Assembly: GCA_964187785.1 (NCBI GenBank)
Contig: OZ076409.1
Location: 16,432,001-16,496,000, forward strand
DNA length: 64,000 bases
DNA from: Amphiscolops sp. MND2022
Lineage: Eukaryota
Direction of reading: 5' to 3'
Shown: one piece after another, positions 1-63,638 of the stretch
Layout: the number at the start of each line of letters is the position of its first letter
Numbering within the stretch: the stretch's first letter is position 1
Program-made: the position numbers and the translations under genes
The notes under the pieces: model-generated
The model's input: only the letters and a program-made list of their open reading frames with translations
The model's database searches: none
What the model was told of the DNA's origin: nothing

Positions 1-158
1 AATTTTGCTTTCTCACACTTTTTCTGGAATATTTTTGTTTCATCAGATGTCAATAACTTGAAACGTCGTCTTTTCATGAGAATTTCTCCTCAAAACAAGT
101 TGTTGGCTGGTAATGGTAAGTCCGTACCGCAGATAGGAGTCTCGCGCTCCAAAAATTG

Positions 159-280
159 ACTCTTTGCTTTTAGCCTAATTGTTGTGATAAACTTATTAAA
201 TAGGTAAGTATTCCAACCCTATTGATAAGTTTTATTTGAAAGCAGACTGCGAAAGTGGTCTGCTGCCCAATTTTTGAACA
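159..280 (+). ncRNA. Putative spliced-leader (SL) RNA gene, first copy; present in every unit (59 uninterrupted, 6 interrupted). 5' and 3' ends approximate.
   Basis: Exon ends at 203 (...AAACTTATTAAATAG), donor GTAAGT at 204-209. Stem-loop I: AAACTTATT 189-197 pairs with GATAAGTTT 224-232 and AATAGG 199-204 pairs with CCTATT 218-223, enclosing the splice site. Stem-loop II: AGCAGACTGC-GAAA-GTGGTCTGCT 241-264. Single-stranded Sm-type site AATTTTTGA at 269-277. SL/5S linkage is a known arrangement. Confidence 0.85.
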
Positions 281-371
281 AGGAACAAGCTAGTCTGCAC
301 TAACTTAAAAGTTACGCGTATTTTGACCGAGAAAATTTTCGTATCATTGTACGTAATTTTGTTGTTAAGCA

Positions 372-377
372 TATAAA
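372..377 (+). promoter_or_regulatory. TATA-like upstream element of the 5S gene (every unit)
   Basis: TATAAA at -27 to -22 relative to the 5S start at 399. Confidence 0.6.
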
Positions 378-398
378 GCTATTGATTTTACAATGATC

Positions 399-517
399 GG
401 CTACGACCATACCATGTTGAATGCACCGGTTCTCGTCCGATCACCGAAGTTAAACAACATAGGGCCTGGTTAGTACTTGGATGGGAGACCGCTTGGGAAC
501 ACCAGGTGTTGTAGCCT
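399..517 (+). rRNA. 5S rRNA
   Basis: GGCTACGACCATACC...TTAGTACTTGGATGGGAGACCGCTTGGGAACACCAGGTGTTGTAGCC; eukaryotic 5S consensus, paired ends, T-run terminator. Confidence 0.98.
448..489 (+). promoter_or_regulatory. 5S internal control region, Pol III type 1 promoter (box A to box C; every unit)
   Basis: AGTTAAAC at 448-455 (box A position) and GGATGGGAGAC at 479-489 (box C). Confidence 0.75.
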
Positions 518-522
518 TTTTT
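517..522 (+). terminator. Pol III oligo-dT terminator of 5S (every unit)
   Basis: T6 run directly after ...GTGTTGTAGCC. Confidence 0.9.
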
Positions 523-527
523 GTCAG

Positions 528-797
528 AAATGTGGTTTAACTTCGGTGACAGTTTTGCAAAAGGGGTCAAATTGAAAAGATAGCACAAAACGGACAACGC
601 CATCAGAAAGAGCGTCCAAAAAAACCCCCATGCTGAAATTTTCGCCGCCATCACTTGAATTTTCATTGAGTTATGTCATTTTTACTATTTTCACAAAATG
701 TGGTTTAACTTCGGTGACAGTTTTGCAAAAGGGGTCAAAATGAACAGATAGCAAAAAACGGACAACGGCATTGGAAAGAGGGCCCAAAATTACCCCT
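528..797 (+). repeat. Two imperfect ~100-bp direct subrepeats in the spacer (about 528-630 and 696-797; every unit)
   Basis: AAATGTGGTTTAACTTCGGTGACAGTTTTGCAAAAGGGGTCAAA... occurs twice, 168 bp apart, and diverges towards the 3' end. Confidence 0.9.
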
Positions 798-1302
798 AAA
801 ACGTGTTTTTCACACTCCTGAGTCGACTTTTGATAATACATGGAATTTCATTTTTAAGCTTACTAATTTATGCTTTTCAGCATACATTTTCGTAATAGAG
901 TCAAAATTTTGCTTTCTCACACTTTTTCTGGAATATTTTTGTTTCATCAGATGTCAATAACTTGAAACGTCGTCTTTTCATGAGAATTTCTCCTCAAAAC
1001 AAGTTGTTGGCTGGTAATGGTAAGTCCGTACCGCAGATAGGAGTCTCGCGCTCCAAAAATTGACTCTTTGCTTTTAGCCTAATTGTTGTGATAAACTTAT
1101 TAAATAGGTAAGTATTCCAACCCTATTGATAAGTTTTATTTGAAAGCAGACTGCGAAAGTGGTCTGCTGCCCAATTTTTGAACAAGGAACAAGCTAGTCT
1201 GCACTAACTTAAAAGTTACGCGTATTTTGACCGAGAAAATTTTCGTATCATTGTACGTAATTTTGTTGTTAAGCATATAAAGCTATTGATTTTACAATGA
1301 TC

Positions 1303-37264: not shown

Positions 37265-37658
37265 AAGTCCTTTTAATAAGTTTGCTTGTACATCATTCGG
37301 TTAAGCAACCCATAGCTCTGTGCTATCATTCAAACTACCATTTTACAAACCCGTCGTGAAGCACCTAAGAAGCCATTCTTTCCTACGGGGGTCGCTGGCT
37401 AAGGTTTGATCTGCGTGGATATTCTTCCAACCGGCTCGTGTGTGGTCGCGTTAGTAGATCAAGCTGAGAAACCGAGACTGGTGCTTCCCAGCGTATTCGT
37501 GAGGTTGCGCTGAAGCTTTCTTGGCGGTCGGCTGGCAGGAGCCCTCAATAAACTGCCAGTTGTCCCAGCAGAGCTCTTCACAGCTGGCAGTGATAGATGC
37601 TCTGTTTCCCCCTAAAAACAAAACAACTCTTTCCCTTTTATTTCAACTGAACTAAAGA

Positions 37659-38852
37659 ATGGATTACGCAGCAGCAACAAAATCAAGCGAAACAACAGAA
37701 GACTACCTCCCCCCACTTCTGTTTGTACTTCCAATCACTAAAGAAGATTTCAACACTCCGAACGGAATTATTGACATCTTCGTTAAACTCTGTACGACAC
37801 TCTTAGCAAAACTACCATGTGAGGCTAGAACGAAAACGGTCATACAACGAGTAACATACGGATTCAAGAAATTGAAGGCAGTCAAAGTAAACTTGCCAAC
37901 TTCTTGTCAGAACGTACAAAACGAAATGCTCGGCATGGGGCTAGAATGTGGGAACAAAACGGTATGGCCGGTGCGAGACGACCGAACCTACAGATTCTAC
38001 CCGTGCAATGTCAGCATCAAGATTCAAAATGCCCTGCCCAATCTGACCAACGAAGAAATCAAGAACGAACTGAAACTACCCGAAGGCATTACTGCGAACG
38101 ACGACTTGAACTTCAAAACAGTCAGCATTGGGCCGTACATGAAAGTCTTTGATGGAACAGCGACAATCTCTGCCACTGTTCAGTCTGCCGAGCAAATGGA
38201 AGAAATGAAAAACTGGTCGCGCAAAGCTTTCTTTGAAGAAAAACAAGTTAGAAATCAAGTGACTCAGATGTATGCTCCTAACATCATGACATGTACTTTC
38301 TGTGAAAAGAAAGGCTCCTTCTACAGAGGTCATGATGACACTTGGTGCACAAAGAAAACGAAAGAAGAACGCGAACTGAAAAAAAAAGCGAAGGCGATCG
38401 AAGACGAAGGCGACGTCTTCACAGCCGACGAACAAAGTGTACACAACGAACAAATCGCAAAAATTAGAAACGACAGCTGTGCATCAACATCAAGCAGAAA
38501 TAATAAAAGACGACGCAGCACACCAAAGCGCGCCAACTCGGAAAAAAACCCACGACTCAGTGCGAGACAGCGAACCAGCCAAATACCAAAGATGAAAGCA
38601 AAAGCTCAAAATGAGAACAAACCCGAACAAAAAGAAAGTACAAGTCAAACTGCAAACAACAACAGTGATAACAATGACGAGAATGAAGAACAAGATACCA
38701 CAAGCACGAAGAACGCAGATACCGAAAACAGATTGCCGAAACCGCTGAACATGAGAGATTTTGTGGATGCAATGAATCCAATTCATCACATAGAAACAAA
38801 TGAAACAACAAACAACAACGTCAACGAAACAAACAATACGAAGACGAAATGA
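37659..38852 (+). CDS. Retrotransposon ORF1p, putative nucleic-acid-binding/gag-like protein (397 aa)
   Basis: Long ORF directly upstream of the RT ORF; knuckle-like CTFCEKKGSFYRGHDDTWC (C-x2-C-x9-H-x4-C); basic segment and low-complexity N/E/T-rich C-terminus. Confidence 0.85.
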   Translation: MDYAAATKSSETTEDYLPPLLFVLPITKEDFNTPNGIIDIFVKLCTTLLAKLPCEARTKTVIQRVTYGFKKLKAVKVNLPTSCQNVQNEMLGMGLECGNKTVWPVRDDRTYRFYPCNVSIKIQNALPNLTNEEIKNELKLPEGITANDDLNFKTVSIGPYMKVFDGTATISATVQSAEQMEEMKNWSRKAFFEEKQVRNQVTQMYAPNIMTCTFCEKKGSFYRGHDDTWCTKKTKEERELKKKAKAIEDEGDVFTADEQSVHNEQIAKIRNDSCASTSSRNNKRRRSTPKRANSEKNPRLSARQRTSQIPKMKAKAQNENKPEQKESTSQTANNNSDNNDENEEQDTTSTKNADTENRLPKPLNMRDFVDAMNPIHHIETNETTNNNVNETNNTKTK

Positions 38853-41800
38853 CGACGCCCAACATTGTTAGTTTCAATTGTAGGGGTCTTGGCAATCCCT
38901 TGAAACTCACAAGCCTAATTGCAAATACTGACATCAACAATGACGTCATTGCAATTCAAGAAACTAAAATGAAAAAACTAAAGAAAAAACATTTGAAAAT
39001 ACTCGAGTCCTACGACATGAATTACGTAATCAGCCCATGCGACAAATCAAAAGCGGGCGGCCTGCTGCTTTTGTTCAAAGCAAAACATAACGTAGAGTTG
39101 GTTACCCAAAACAAGTCTTTTCAAATTATAAAGATGTCAAACCAAGCCACTGAAACAAAGATGGCCAATGTTTACATATGCCCCAGCTGGAGTATAAGCA
39201 AAATCAATGAAGAACTTGAAGACCTGAAACTCAACTTGGAATCAAAGCATCTCAGGCATATTGAACCATGTGTAATAGTTGGTGACTTGAATTGTTTCGA
39301 TGACGTCACAAGAAACAAACATCCTCAATATGCAAAACACAAAGTTATACTGAAAGCGTTTGAAAAAATGGGCTTGATGGACATGGCAGTGAAGCTTGAG
39401 AATATCGAGAACACACACTTCGCGCCAGCCCAAAAACCATCGCGCCTGGATTATATCTTCTCAAATGTTGTGAGTCAGAAACAAGAAATCAGAACGATCA
39501 AGACATGCTTCTCAGATCACCGAATTTTGCGCCTGTCAAGCAAGCATAAGGCCGAGCAAGGTCAAAAGATCTTTAGAATGGATGACACAACTGTTGATGA
39601 AAACGTCAAAACCCTGAAAACGCTGATTTCACAAACAAATGGCTTGACCGGTGAACAGCTAGCGAATGATGCGTATCTCACAATGAAAAATGAGATTTCC
39701 AACTTTCTAAGACAAGCTAGCATATGGAGAGCAAGAAATAACAAAGACAGACTGCTCAAGGGGCCCGACGCAGAAGCTGAGCAGAATCTTGCAAAAAGAA
39801 TGCTAGCAGCAGTGAAGGTCAAATGCACTGACCTGAATGAAGGAAACTTGAAGATTGTTAAAAAGTACTGCTCTGACAATGCAAACAACCAAAGCAACGC
39901 GATCAAGAAGCTGAAAACACAGAAAGATCGAATTGTCTCAAGTGAGAATGAGATCATAGATGAAGTTACAAAGTACTACAGTAAGCTCTACGCCAACGAA
40001 CCAATTGATGAGAAGAAACAAGAGTGCCTCATCACAAACTTCAAAAAACAGATCTCTGAAGATGAAAGAGAACGTCTAACTCAGCAAATCACCCTAGACG
40101 AGATCAAAAATGCGATTGACAATCTGAACAAAGAAAGCGCGCCAGGCCCAGATGGACTAACCCCAAAACTGTTTCAAACGTTCAAGGAAGAATTCAGTCT
40201 TATGTTTCAAAAGATGTTTGAACATGCTGCAGACGGTAACAACTTACCAATGGCATTCAACCAAGCCTTCATTAGACTACTTCCGAAAAGTGGTGATCTG
40301 ACAACATTGAAGAACTGGAGACCAATAAGCCTGATCAACACTGACAGCAAGATTTTTTCAGCAGTAATTGCAAACCGAATGAAAAGTAGCCTCCGCGAAA
40401 TCATCCACCCAGATCAATGCGCATATTTGAAAGGCAGACAAATGTCAAACGCCACACTGCTACTAAAATCTCTGTGCACAAACAAAAGAATGAAAAAAAC
40501 TTTGACACTAGCTGGACTCGACTTCAGCAAAGCCTTCGACAGGGTAGATCGTTCGTACTTGCTGAAACTTATAAAACATGTGGGATTCCCTCCCAACATA
40601 TACAACATGATAGAGCAACTGTACAAAGATACACGATCTAACGTTCTAGTCAACTCCTTCATCACAAGACGAATACAGCAAGAAAGAGGAGTGAAACAAG
40701 GATGCCCAGTCTCAGCTCTTTTGTTCATCCTAGCTATTGAGCCATTGCTTGAACTACTGAGATCGTCATCGAGCCTGACTGGAATCGCAAAAGGAAAATT
40801 GAAGAAAAAAATCATTGCATATGCTGATGACGTCACAATGTTAGTTGAGAATGAAGAACAACTGAAGCAAGCAATTCAAACAGTTGAAGACTTTGGCAAA
40901 AGCACCCAATTCGCCTTGAACGCTGACAAAACGGAACAGTTTGACCTGAATCGAAGAAATGAAGATCAAAAGATCAAACTCCTCGGTTTGTATTTGTTCA
41001 GCAACCAAAAAAGTGAAAAGCAGCACTACCAGCAACAACTGATCCAAGAAAGCGAAAGAGCAAAGAAAGTGTGTAGACCATCAATGTCGATGAAAACTAA
41101 AAGTTGCGTCATGAAAGCCTTCGTAATGCCAAAAATAGTGTTCCATGCGAAAGCCTCAAACTGTGATCGAGCAACTTGGAAAAAAGTTCAACGAAACCTA
41201 AAACAAGGACTTCACAACAATAGGAGCAATCAGATTTCAGAACGCCTTCTTTTTCAAAGCACCAATGAAGGCGGTGTTGGCTTCCCATGCGTGAAGACCT
41301 ATGCAAGCACTTCTTTTCTGATGGATGTGTGGAGAGCAGTTTTCCACAATGACGATCACTTTATTGCACTCGAAATCAAAGAAGCAGTAGAAGACGAGAA
41401 AAGTTACGTTCACAGCAAACTGAAACAAATGAAAACGATAACGAAAGCGCGAGCGATAACTTTCAAGCGAGAACACATAGAGTTTGTGACAAGTGAAGGA
41501 CTAACAAAAATCCCTGCTACTTCAAAAGCAATATACGCCTTTGCAATCCGCCGACAGCATGCAGACTTCGTAGATGAAAGAATCATGAAAGCGGGATCAA
41601 AACTTCAAACAGCACCCCAACAACTTCTGTACACACTCAAAGCAATTTGGAGAAGCAACAAACTGAACCCTGTTCAACGAGACGTTTTCTATAATTTCAG
41701 TTTCAATCTTTACCGAGACAAAGTATTCCTCCATGCAGCTGGCTACAAGTCTGATGATGACTGTTTCCTTTGCGGAGCAAGTAAACAAACACATGAGCAT

Positions 41801-42016
41801 CTGATCCTAGATTGTCAAAAAACAAAGCAGATTGCTGAAACCCTTGGAATTCGCAGCATGAAAGATCTGTACCAGCAGGCAGAACAAGACACATGGAAAA
41901 AAGTGAGATTCGTAACAACTCTGCTCATATGTTCATGGACCGACAACAAGCAAGAAGTGGAACAAATGATTCACAACTTTCCCATCACTACCAAGCAAGT
42001 TGGCACAGTGGCTTAG
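38849..42016 (+). CDS. Retrotransposon ORF2p: APE-type endonuclease + reverse transcriptase + C-terminal CCHC zinc finger (1055 aa)
   Basis: APE motifs SFNCRGL, IQETK, GDLN, RLDYIF, SDH. RT motifs SAPGPDG, NWRPISL, LDFSKAFDRV, GVKQGCPVS, YADD. EGGVGFP motif and CFLCGASKQTHEHLILDC near the C-terminus, as in L1/Tx1 elements. Confidence 0.97.
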   Translation: MTTPNIVSFNCRGLGNPLKLTSLIANTDINNDVIAIQETKMKKLKKKHLKILESYDMNYVISPCDKSKAGGLLLLFKAKHNVELVTQNKSFQIIKMSNQATETKMANVYICPSWSISKINEELEDLKLNLESKHLRHIEPCVIVGDLNCFDDVTRNKHPQYAKHKVILKAFEKMGLMDMAVKLENIENTHFAPAQKPSRLDYIFSNVVSQKQEIRTIKTCFSDHRILRLSSKHKAEQGQKIFRMDDTTVDENVKTLKTLISQTNGLTGEQLANDAYLTMKNEISNFLRQASIWRARNNKDRLLKGPDAEAEQNLAKRMLAAVKVKCTDLNEGNLKIVKKYCSDNANNQSNAIKKLKTQKDRIVSSENEIIDEVTKYYSKLYANEPIDEKKQECLITNFKKQISEDERERLTQQITLDEIKNAIDNLNKESAPGPDGLTPKLFQTFKEEFSLMFQKMFEHAADGNNLPMAFNQAFIRLLPKSGDLTTLKNWRPISLINTDSKIFSAVIANRMKSSLREIIHPDQCAYLKGRQMSNATLLLKSLCTNKRMKKTLTLAGLDFSKAFDRVDRSYLLKLIKHVGFPPNIYNMIEQLYKDTRSNVLVNSFITRRIQQERGVKQGCPVSALLFILAIEPLLELLRSSSSLTGIAKGKLKKKIIAYADDVTMLVENEEQLKQAIQTVEDFGKSTQFALNADKTEQFDLNRRNEDQKIKLLGLYLFSNQKSEKQHYQQQLIQESERAKKVCRPSMSMKTKSCVMKAFVMPKIVFHAKASNCDRATWKKVQRNLKQGLHNNRSNQISERLLFQSTNEGGVGFPCVKTYASTSFLMDVWRAVFHNDDHFIALEIKEAVEDEKSYVHSKLKQMKTITKARAITFKREHIEFVTSEGLTKIPATSKAIYAFAIRRQHADFVDERIMKAGSKLQTAPQQLLYTLKAIWRSNKLNPVQRDVFYNFSFNLYRDKVFLHAAGYKSDDDCFLCGASKQTHEHLILDCQKTKQIAETLGIRSMKDLYQQAEQDTWKKVRFVTTLLICSWTDNKQEVEQMIHNFPITTKQVGTVA

Positions 42017-42107
42017 CCAAAGACCATGAGTCAAACAAACGAGGTTCGAACCTCTGACGGAACCAAGACACAAACATGAAAAAAACTCTTTTACCTTATT
42101 GTTTGAA

Positions 42108-54175: not shown

Positions 54176-54777
54176 TTTTTGTCAGAAATGTGGTTTAACT
54201 TCGGTGACAGTTTTGCAAAAGGGGTCAAATTGAAAAGATAGCACAAAACGGACAACGCCATCAGAAAGAGCGTCCAAAAAAACCCCCATGCTGAAATTTT
54301 CGCCGCCATCACTTGAATTTTCATTGAGTTATGTCATTTTTACTATTTTCACAAAATGTGGTTTAACTTCGGTGACAGTTTTGCAAAAGGGGTCAAAATG
54401 AACAGATAGCAAAAAACGGACAACGGCATTGGAAAGAGGGCCCAAAATTACCCCTAAAACGTGTTTTTCACACTCCTGAGTCGACTTTTGATAATACATG
54501 GAATTTCATTTTTAAGCTTACTAATTTATGCTTTTCAGCATACATTTTCGTAATAGAGTCAAAATTTTGCTTTCTCACAATTTTTCTGGAATATTTTTGT
54601 TTCATCAGATGTCAATAACTTGAAACGTCGTCTTTTCATGAGAATTTCTCCTCAAAACAAGTTGTTGGCTGGTAATGGTAAGTCCGTACCGCAGATAGGA
54701 GTCTCGCGCTCCAAAAATTGACTCTTTGCTTTTAGCCTAATTGTTGTGATAAACTTATTAAATAGGTAAGTATTCCA

Positions 54778-54873
54778 TTTTTGGAGTATATCTTGCCTGT
54801 TTGAGGTGTGAGTCGCAGCAATCATAGGTCCAAAACCAGTAACCAAAAACCAACCTGTACTTACTTGTTTGAA
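54778..54873 (+). mobile_element. 96-bp retro-insertion in SL RNA gene (5'-truncated sister LINE or SINE-like), copy 1
   Basis: Flanked by the 14-bp duplication AGGTAAGTATTCCA (54764-54777 and 54874-54887); ends TTGTTTGAA at the same host base as the full-length element. Confidence 0.85.
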
Positions 54874-55068
54874 AGGTAAGTATTCCAACCCTATTGATAA
54901 GTTTTATTTGAAAGCAGACTGCGAAAGGTCTGCTGCCCAATTTTTGAACAAGGAACAAGCTAGTCTGCACTAACTTAAAAGTTACGCGTATTTTGACCGA
55001 GAAAATTTTCGTATCATTGTACGTAATTTTGTTGTTAAGCATATAAAGCTATTGATTTTACAATGATC

Positions 55069-56693: not shown

Positions 56694-56789
56694 TTTTTGG
56701 AGTATATCTTGCCTGTTTGAGGTGTGAGTCGCAGCAATCATAGGTCCAAAACCAGTAACCAAAAACCAACCTGTACTTACTTGTTTGAA
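56694..56789 (+). mobile_element. 96-bp retro-insertion in SL RNA gene, copy 2
   Basis: Same sequence and 14-bp duplication as copy 1. Confidence 0.85.
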
Positions 56790-56984
56790 AGGTAAGTATT
56801 CCAACCCTATTGATAAGTTTTATTTGAAAGCAGACTGCGAAAGGTCTGCTGCCCAATTTTTGAACAAGGAACAAGCTAGTCTGCACTAACTTAAAAGTTA
56901 CGCGTATTTTGACCGAGAAAATTTTCGTATCATTGTACGTAATTTTGTTGTTAAGCATATAAAGCTATTGATTTTACAATGATC

Positions 56985-57705: not shown

Positions 57706-57801
57706 TTTTTGGAGTATATCTTGCCTGTTTGAGGTGTGAGTCGCAGCAATCATAGGTCCAAAACCAGTAACCAAAAACCAACCTGTACTTACTTGTTTGA
57801 A
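57706..57801 (+). mobile_element. 96-bp retro-insertion in SL RNA gene, copy 3
   Basis: Same sequence and 14-bp duplication as copy 1. Confidence 0.85.
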
Positions 57802-57996
57802 AGGTAAGTATTCCAACCCTATTGATAAGTTTTATTTGAAAGCAGACTGCGAAAGGTCTGCTGCCCAATTTTTGAACAAGGAACAAGCTAGTCTGCACTA
57901 ACTTAAAAGTTACGCGTATTTTGACCGAGAAAATTTTCGTATCATTGTACGTAATTTTGTTGTTAAGCATATAAAGCTATTGATTTTACAATGATC

Positions 57997-59621: not shown

Positions 59622-59717
59622 TTTTTGGAGTATATCTTGCCTGTTTGAGGTGTGAGTCGCAGCAATCATAGGTCCAAAACCAGTAACCAAAAACCAACCT
59701 GTACTTACTTGTTTGAA
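59622..59717 (+). mobile_element. 96-bp retro-insertion in SL RNA gene, copy 4
   Basis: Same sequence and 14-bp duplication as copy 1. Confidence 0.85.
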
Positions 59718-59912
59718 AGGTAAGTATTCCAACCCTATTGATAAGTTTTATTTGAAAGCAGACTGCGAAAGGTCTGCTGCCCAATTTTTGAACAAGGAAC
59801 AAGCTAGTCTGCACTAACTTAAAAGTTACGCGTATTTTGACCGAGAAAATTTTCGTATCATTGTACGTAATTTTGTTGTTAAGCATATAAAGCTATTGAT
59901 TTTACAATGATC

Positions 59913-63345: not shown

Positions 63346-63441
63346 TTTTTGGAGTATATCTTGCCTGTTTGAGGTGTGAGTCGCAGCAATCATAGGTCCA
63401 AAACCAGTAACCAAAAACCAACCTGTACTTACTTGTTTGAA
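63346..63441 (+). mobile_element. 96-bp retro-insertion in SL RNA gene, copy 5 (no linked 2-bp deletion)
   Basis: Same insert and duplication; downstream stem-loop II is wild type. Confidence 0.85.
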
Positions 63442-63638
63442 AGGTAAGTATTCCAACCCTATTGATAAGTTTTATTTGAAAGCAGACTGCGAAAGTGGTC
63501 TGCTGCCCAATTTTTGAACAAGGAACAAGCTAGTCTGCACTAACTTAAAAGTTACGCGTATTTTGACCGAGAAAATTTTCGTATCATTGTACGTAATTTT
63601 GTTGTTAAGCATATAAAGCTATTGATTTTACAATGATC

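Follow-up and report, generated by a model that had tools for sequence, protein, structure and literature searches.

A spliced-leader RNA gene arrayed with 5S rDNA in a likely acoel genome, and L1-group retrotransposons that insert into it

Organization of the array

The window, by which we mean the whole 64,000-nucleotide stretch of DNA analysed here, consists of 904-bp units repeated in tandem, and every unit holds one 5S rRNA gene (65 matches at 117.5 bits). In the first unit, a segment at 159–280 lies head-to-tail with the 5S gene on the same strand, with 118 bp between its end and the 5S start at 399. We read this segment as a spliced-leader (SL) RNA gene with the following parts:

166..203, plus strand: SL exon (leader), 38 nt if counted from G166 and 32 nt from A172; 173–203 equal the published leader
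204..209, plus strand: splice donor GTAAGT; 10 of 10 bases at 202–211 are complementary to the most frequent 5′ end among the U1 genes of this genome
189..232, plus strand: predicted stem-loop I (stem 189–204/218–232), in which the 3′ part of the leader pairs with the intron and the donor lies at the loop edge
241..264, plus strand: predicted stem-loop II, 10 pairs (8 Watson–Crick, 2 G–U) with a GAAA loop
269..277, plus strand: Sm-type site AATTTTTGA, a motif; other arrays have six-T or T-to-C variants
399..517, plus strand: 5S rRNA gene, 117.5 bits; 65 copies in units of 904 bp

The leader closes an ATG-free stretch that runs up to 203 and ends AAATAG, and the U1 5′ end to which the donor is complementary is that of 8 of 12 U1 loci. 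An initial annotation, made from the letters alone, had named AAATAG, GTAAGT, both predicted hairpins, the Sm-type site and the distance to 5S, all of which are present where it placed them. It had also put an SL gene in every unit, which holds for 59 of the 65: these copies are identical and intact, whereas 6 are interrupted, in five cases by 110 bp inserted at the donor and in one by a 4.84-kb retrotransposon. Four of the five units with the 110-bp insert have also lost two bases of stem-loop II. Each unit further contains an internal duplication of about 100 bp in the spacer downstream of 5S (528–628 and 696–796, about 90% alike).

The predicted fold of 159–280 has a free energy of −27.6 kcal/mol (z = −2.81, matched by 1 of 200 shuffles), and z values for the whole gene range from −2.8 to −3.8; the donor hairpin taken alone (166–240) does not exceed its shuffles (z = −1.13). 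Nematode and trypanosome SL RNAs follow a three-stem pattern. The RNA predicted here differs from it in that no third stem-loop is found 3′ of the Sm-type site.

The gene is multicopy. Genome-wide, 186–203 occurs in 1,991 copies and is followed by GTAAG in 1,214, compared with 0 for a reversed control. Comparison of the window with the single uninterrupted unit recovered from C12 indicates constraint: 47 of 669 spacer positions differ, whereas there are 0 of 119 differences in 5S, 0 of 38 in 166–203 and 1 of 78 in 204–281, with changes at 159 and 163. Further SL/5S arrays at C12:56.14–56.61 Mb and C13:13.1–13.3 Mb share about 94% identity with the window unit and have a Sm-site variant with C at unit position 275; at unit position 318–320, the C13 array also carries an 810-bp, MITE-like insertion that has terminal inverted repeats. 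The linkage to 5S likely reflects shared amplification and homogenization rather than co-transcription.

Leader identity and RNA contigs

Positions 173–203 are letter-for-letter the published SL of the acoel Symsagittifera roscoffensis. The host is therefore likely an acoel, and the taxon, which the initial annotation had thought beyond reach of the sequence, can be narrowed to that extent. In the accessible text of the S. roscoffensis genome paper (PMC9911081), 10,433 genes (30.2%) are trans-spliced and the leader derives from multiple SL RNA genes; the paper, with its preprint (bioRxiv 10.1101/2022.08.27.505549), also gives a putative SL RNA fold (Supplementary Figure 2) and a conserved gene region of about 100 bp. 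As far as that text goes, the two systems have 173–203, multiple SL RNA genes and a folded gene region in common, and they differ in that the published consensus carries one extra 3′ A, absent from the gene here, and does not include 166–172. SL addition was recorded for another acoel, Convoluta pulchra, in 2008 (accessible part of PMC2481426). The leader, its prevalence and a putative fold of the SL RNA gene are thus already published, and the gene itself is not the novelty that it had been taken for. The string ‘5S r’ has 0 occurrences in the text of PMC9911081, the preprint and the supplement, and our literature search on Xenacoelomorpha, trans-splicing and 5S returned no earlier record of SL/5S co-repetition in Xenacoelomorpha. 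As far as that search reaches, the linkage is a new phylum-level record.

We compared contigs of 4 of 10 listed runs with window positions 1–398. Three runs from three studies gave matches: X1 (10 contigs), X5 (653 contigs, from a run that is only guessed to be RNA) and X9 (14 contigs). The contigs lie mainly on 166–203 and have unrelated loose ends behind 201–211, which is the behaviour expected of a leader found on many RNAs; together with the identical leader published on mRNAs and with retrocopies that diverge at 203/204, it bears out the SL RNA reading. The leader sequence is also present in the RNA of other organisms, as small shares of the X1, X5 and X9 runs, which we do not read as a guide to habitat or species. 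No contig of these runs covers positions before 164 or after 280, and we do not count the absence of contigs as evidence.

X1 contigs also run on through the intron (178–271 with 0 differences, 244–275 with 1) and together span 166–275, although contigs cannot prove the ends of an RNA and X1 is likely another species. Past 275 they agree with the window to about 281, bar one extra T, and then diverge, which suggests that X1 is a related species and that the gene ends near 276–281. The 3′ end of the SL RNA probably lies there too.

The product is likely a capped, Sm-bound RNA of about 110–116 nt with a leader that is trans-spliced onto AG acceptors. Following established SL biology, RNA polymerase II would make this RNA with a trimethyl cap, Sm proteins would bind the predicted site at 269–277 and the spliceosome would attach the exon at unpaired AG acceptors, so that the mRNA receives both cap and leader.

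Retrotransposons that target the SL gene

The 4.84-kb interruption, F0, and the 110-bp insertions, none of which the initial annotation had mentioned, occupy the following positions:

37268..42107, plus strand: F0, an SL-donor-targeting L1-group retrotransposon of 4,840 bp
37659..38852, plus strand: F0 ORF1, 397 aa, homologous to the ORF1 of all other SL-targeting families
38849..42016, plus strand: F0 ORF2, an open frame of 1,055 aa with APE endonuclease, reverse transcriptase (RT) and a C-terminal zinc motif
54778..54887, plus strand: 110-bp insertion at the donor, copy 1 (96 unique bases and a 14-bp duplication of unit 202–215)
56694..56803, plus strand: 110-bp insertion, copy 2
57706..57815, plus strand: 110-bp insertion, copy 3
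59622..59731, plus strand: 110-bp insertion, copy 4
63346..63455, plus strand: 110-bp insertion, copy 5

The leader copy on the 5′ side of F0 has A in place of T at unit position 201, and the element is followed on its 3′ side by AG/GTAAGT and then the SL intron. Like the related family F3, it has two ORFs and an N-terminal Exo_endo_phos domain; ORF1 has no Pfam match. The closest solved structure to F0 ORF2 is human L1 ORF2 (207.7 bits, compared with 109.9 for R2). The elements thus show the features of the L1 group (L1/Tx1), namely an ORF1, an ORF2 with APE, RT and C-terminal zinc motif, and an RT nearest to L1; none of 120 homologues carries the name Tx1. They also show the strict insertion into one multicopy target that is a Tx1-clade trait. 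The 3′ end of F0 has 35 genomic copies and is followed by the SL intron in all 30 that were fetched, and the SL gene follows all 18 genomic copies of the F3 3′ end.

We surveyed 424 kb of array from C1, C12 and C13 plus the window for interruptions of more than 40 bp. Of 69 found, 37 resume at unit position 172 and 29 at the donor region; the other three are one assembly gap and two insertions elsewhere in the spacer, and 0 lie in 5S. The SL exon therefore has two insertion sites, one between 171 and 172 and the other at the donor. The 172 site is used by five families with RT (F3, F6, F8, F9 and F11), which have apparent duplications of 12–20 bp, and by three ORF1-only families of 1.43, 1.60 and 1.98 kb with open frames of 388–553 aa, which we take to resemble half-L1 elements. 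All ORF1s of the SL-targeting families are homologous, including those of the ORF1-only families. Six L1-group (APE-RT) families, with their ORF1-only and 110–130-bp partners, insert only into the SL gene (30/30 and 18/18 copies checked; 66/69 array interruptions).

The array flank at C1:16222001–16402000 is densely interrupted between 171 and 172 by the five RT-bearing L1-group families and the three ORF1-only families. F1 has 26 copies, 20 inside known array spans and 6 clustered elsewhere: their 3′ ends lie at C1:15412789–15425525, about 0.8 Mb from the main array and spaced by 2.0–2.9 kb, and may mark another small SL array.

The 110-bp insert ends at its 3′ side in TTGTTTGAA, which it has in common with F0. 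Because the donor region is duplicated and the last bases of F0 are found in them, the 110-bp insert and a 130-bp insert are likely non-autonomous partners of F0. The 110-bp insert carries a second Sm-type motif just past the donor (54777–54786 and four more copies) and, near its end, a TACTTAC segment complementary to the donor. Units with the insert might make variant SL-like RNAs. Rfam at relaxed threshold returned nothing relevant for the F0 3′ end or the 110-bp insert. The 3′ UTR of F0 contains A-box-like and B-box-like motifs (window 42005–42054), and a tRNA head there is unsupported, as ARAGORN predicted 0 genes and Rfam no tRNA.

The same T-to-A change in the leader recurs in 8 of 10 F0 5′ junctions, two of which lie outside an SL gene and start at 172/173; the leader is therefore likely part of F0’s RNA. 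The SL promoter likely drives transcription of the SL-targeting elements, whose RNAs would then begin with the leader.

In a quick RT tree of 73 rows (6 SL-targeting families, 8 leader-headed elements and 59 of the 120 homologues, P0002–P0060), the six SL-targeting families fall with 27 homologues in one 33-row branch (SH-aLRT 100), and the leader-headed LINEs fall apart from that branch. SL-targeting elements are absent from the accessible text of PMC9911081, and a literature search on Tx1/apurinic elements and the spliced leader, which did not extend to subscription journals or Repbase Reports and saw some sources only in part, returned no APE-type SL-targeting family.

Leader-headed LINEs

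Genome-wide, 173–203 followed by a base other than G has 403 copies. The first 30 of these all diverge at the donor (203/204), into 16 different 12-mers, and none of the leader-headed copies examined has the six bases upstream of 172. Many of the roughly 400 dispersed copies are LINE-like, and some have the leader joined at an internal AG acceptor. When 16 dispersed loci were extended to 8 kb, 9 had an RT motif downstream. Pfam identified RVT_1 in four of four ORF2s and PHD in two of three ORF1s, one just below the cut-off; by the PHD feature, these may be CR1/L2-type LINEs. A search for target-site duplications at the 16 dispersed LINE loci gave no convincing match.

One dispersed LINE family documents the joining in some detail. 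The leader is present in 17 of its 18 copies that retain the 5′ region, one of them with a mismatch. In 14 of the 17 the leader is in an outer position, and in 3 it directly follows an internal TTTTCAG that is also present in the other 14. L030 and L031 are AG-joined as well, and the exception is L048, from another family, in which the junction follows GG, not AG. These observations of joining at AG acceptors come from retroelements.

In many dispersed copies, the sequence that follows the leader opens with TTTCAG or TTTCCGG. Several of them, as well as F0, contain TTTAATAAGT, which could mimic the SL stem because it is complementary to the 3′ part of the leader. In L170, L173 and L176 the head is immediately preceded by short, stuttered leader pieces, none of which includes 166–171, of a kind that template jumping at the 5′ end of an RNA could leave. 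A search for a tandem leader relic of the dinoflagellate type gave 0 matches. No literature title on leader-headed LINEs was found in a search that excluded subscription journals and Repbase Reports.

Alternative interpretations

An identical 31-mer heads hundreds of dispersed copies, many of them LINEs, and flanks L1-group elements, which could mean that the segment is itself the front end, or a remnant, of a retrotransposon that multiplied along with the 5S array. We regard this as very improbable: donor, hairpin and Sm-type site follow the exon in 1,214 copies, the leader heads many unrelated LINE families and, in the accessible text of PMC9911081, 10,433 genes, and the segment is conserved relative to the spacer and recurs in the RNA of other organisms. 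More improbable still is that the segment is mere 5S spacer or the gene of a different Sm-class snRNA, either a U variant or an SmY-like RNA. An Sm-type site and a hairpin are common features, and a weak SmY match (E = 8.1) does exist on the opposite strand, but no Rfam match comes near its gathering score and the exon is found joined to other RNAs. An Rfam assignment to another snRNA had been named at the outset as grounds for giving up the SL reading; at E ≤ 10 over window positions 1–1000, there is no SL or snRNA match on the plus strand, nor is any SL family among the matches when the nematode SL1/SL2 covariance models are included. We put the probability that the segment is an SL RNA gene, with the published acoel leader as its exon, in tandem with 5S rDNA and in a likely acoel host, at about 96%.

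Within the SL RNA reading, evidence on the 5′ end conflicts: RNA contigs point to 166 and retrocopies to 172, and neither supports a start at 159, the first letter of the segment as initially annotated and a position that (like 163) differs in the C12 unit. We think it probable that transcription starts at G166. In three X5 contigs a foreign stretch, which we take to be the template-switch oligonucleotide, directly abuts 166; X9 has an unbroken 166–203 contig (depth 606) and another, of comparable depth (533), in which three extra letters precede 166; and 166–171 are identical in X1, where the match also begins at 166, and X9, even though X1 departs from the window after 281. Contigs, for their part, cannot prove a start. 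A start at A172 is the less likely option but a substantial one: the leader would then be 32 nt long, the retrocopies would simply be full length and the elements would insert at +1. A172 is present in 28 of 30 dispersed leader heads, beyond which extension falls to chance level (TTA in 46 of 403, with 0 of 20 TTA copies reaching 166). All 37 insertions at that exon site resume at 172, the S. roscoffensis consensus as accessible to us begins at 173, and the first base is an A preceded by a pyrimidine in the U2 genes and in every U1 gene except one.

A comparison of the SL gene with 15 distinct U1/U2 upstream regions at any offset found no common upstream element (best mean identity 0.26–0.37). 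On C4 the U2 genes are arrayed in tandem (717/1,089 bp); the U1 genes are dispersed and of several sequence types, with no detectable upstream element common to each other or to U2.

If transcription starts at 166, reverse transcription in vivo would end six bases before it reaches the cap; a bound protein or a modification next to the cap might account for this. Trypanosome cap-4 offers an analogy for a hypermodified cap region. By that analogy, a G166 start with retrocopies stopping at +7 could mean that the cap region of an animal SL RNA is hypermodified as in trypanosomes, an idea that we consider doubtful.

Discussion

We hypothesize that the SL gene serves its retrotransposons in two ways. 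The L1-group clan inserts between 171 and 172 and at the donor, and would probably borrow the SL promoter, with the leader at the front of its RNA. Read-through LINE transcripts are likely trans-spliced, at an inner acceptor or at the AG with which the resident leader ends, and then retroposed; trans-splicing and retroposition together would rebuild the LINE 5′ end in each cycle without an internal promoter. On balance, we favour the view that the acoel SL gene is the hub of a real and undescribed retrotransposon ecosystem, comprising an old APE-type clan and its ORF1-only and SINE-sized parasites, which takes promoter, cap and leader from it. It is part of that view, and held as tentatively, that the clan converged on the SL exon with a different nuclease from those of NeSL and CRE. 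The retrotransposon clan and the leader-headed LINEs, not the SL gene itself, appear to be new.

SL genes and 5S rDNA repeat together in nematodes, Hydra, euglenozoans and dinoflagellates. Linkage in other lineages is noted in the accessible part of PMC10946416, citing Drouin and de Sa 1995, and available sections of PMC8008620 describe it for Oikopleura dioica, the SL gene of which is physically linked to 5S rDNA repeats, as it is here. The O. dioica copies are mostly inverted repeats, whereas the unit here is a head-to-tail repeat of 904 bp with an unrelated leader.

The accessible descriptions of SL-targeting elements (PMC4640811, PMC3636483) concern NeSL of Caenorhabditis and CRE/SLACS/CZAR of trypanosomatids, which belong to the R2 group and use a restriction-like nuclease. 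Exact insertion into a multicopy SL exon, for F0 at the donor, is common to NeSL, CRE/SLACS and the elements here; by the same descriptions, the former have a single ORF with a C-terminal restriction-like nuclease, and those here have two ORFs with an N-terminal APE nuclease. The APE-type target-specific elements in the available parts of PMC4640811, PMC3636483 and PMC8869645 are those of the Tx1 and R1 clades. With the Tx1 clade, as described in what is accessible of PMC4640811, our elements have in common the APE-RT organization, membership of the L1 group and small-RNA genes as targets; Mutsu, for example, targets 5S (PMC10946416, in part). Judged by description, they stand apart from known Tx1-clade elements in having the SL gene as target, two sites per exon and six autonomous families with ORF1-only and 110–130-bp partners. 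There is also a dinoflagellate parallel: the available text of PMC12014239 reports SL relics in retrogenes, which arise through retroposition of trans-spliced RNA. Those relics and the copies here both keep the leader in DNA; here the heads examined are mostly LINE-like and start at 172, there is no tandem relic and the internal AG is kept.

Other Tx1-clade targets are U2 genes (Keno) and tRNA genes (Dewa). A retrotransposon lineage of the APE type now appears to have arrived at SL genes as its target independently, and six related families that share out two sites in a 38-bp exon would provide a natural series for the gain and shift of APE nuclease specificity. Acoel trans-splicing and its leader were already known, and the 5S linkage adds one lineage to a recurrent SL/5S pairing. 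The corrected bounds of the exon, without the terminal A and probably with 6–7 more 5′ bases, would improve SL-based annotation of genes and operons in a model acoel group. LINE 5′ ends written by trans-splicing may also preserve in DNA which acceptors were chosen and at what point on a capped leader reverse transcription ends.
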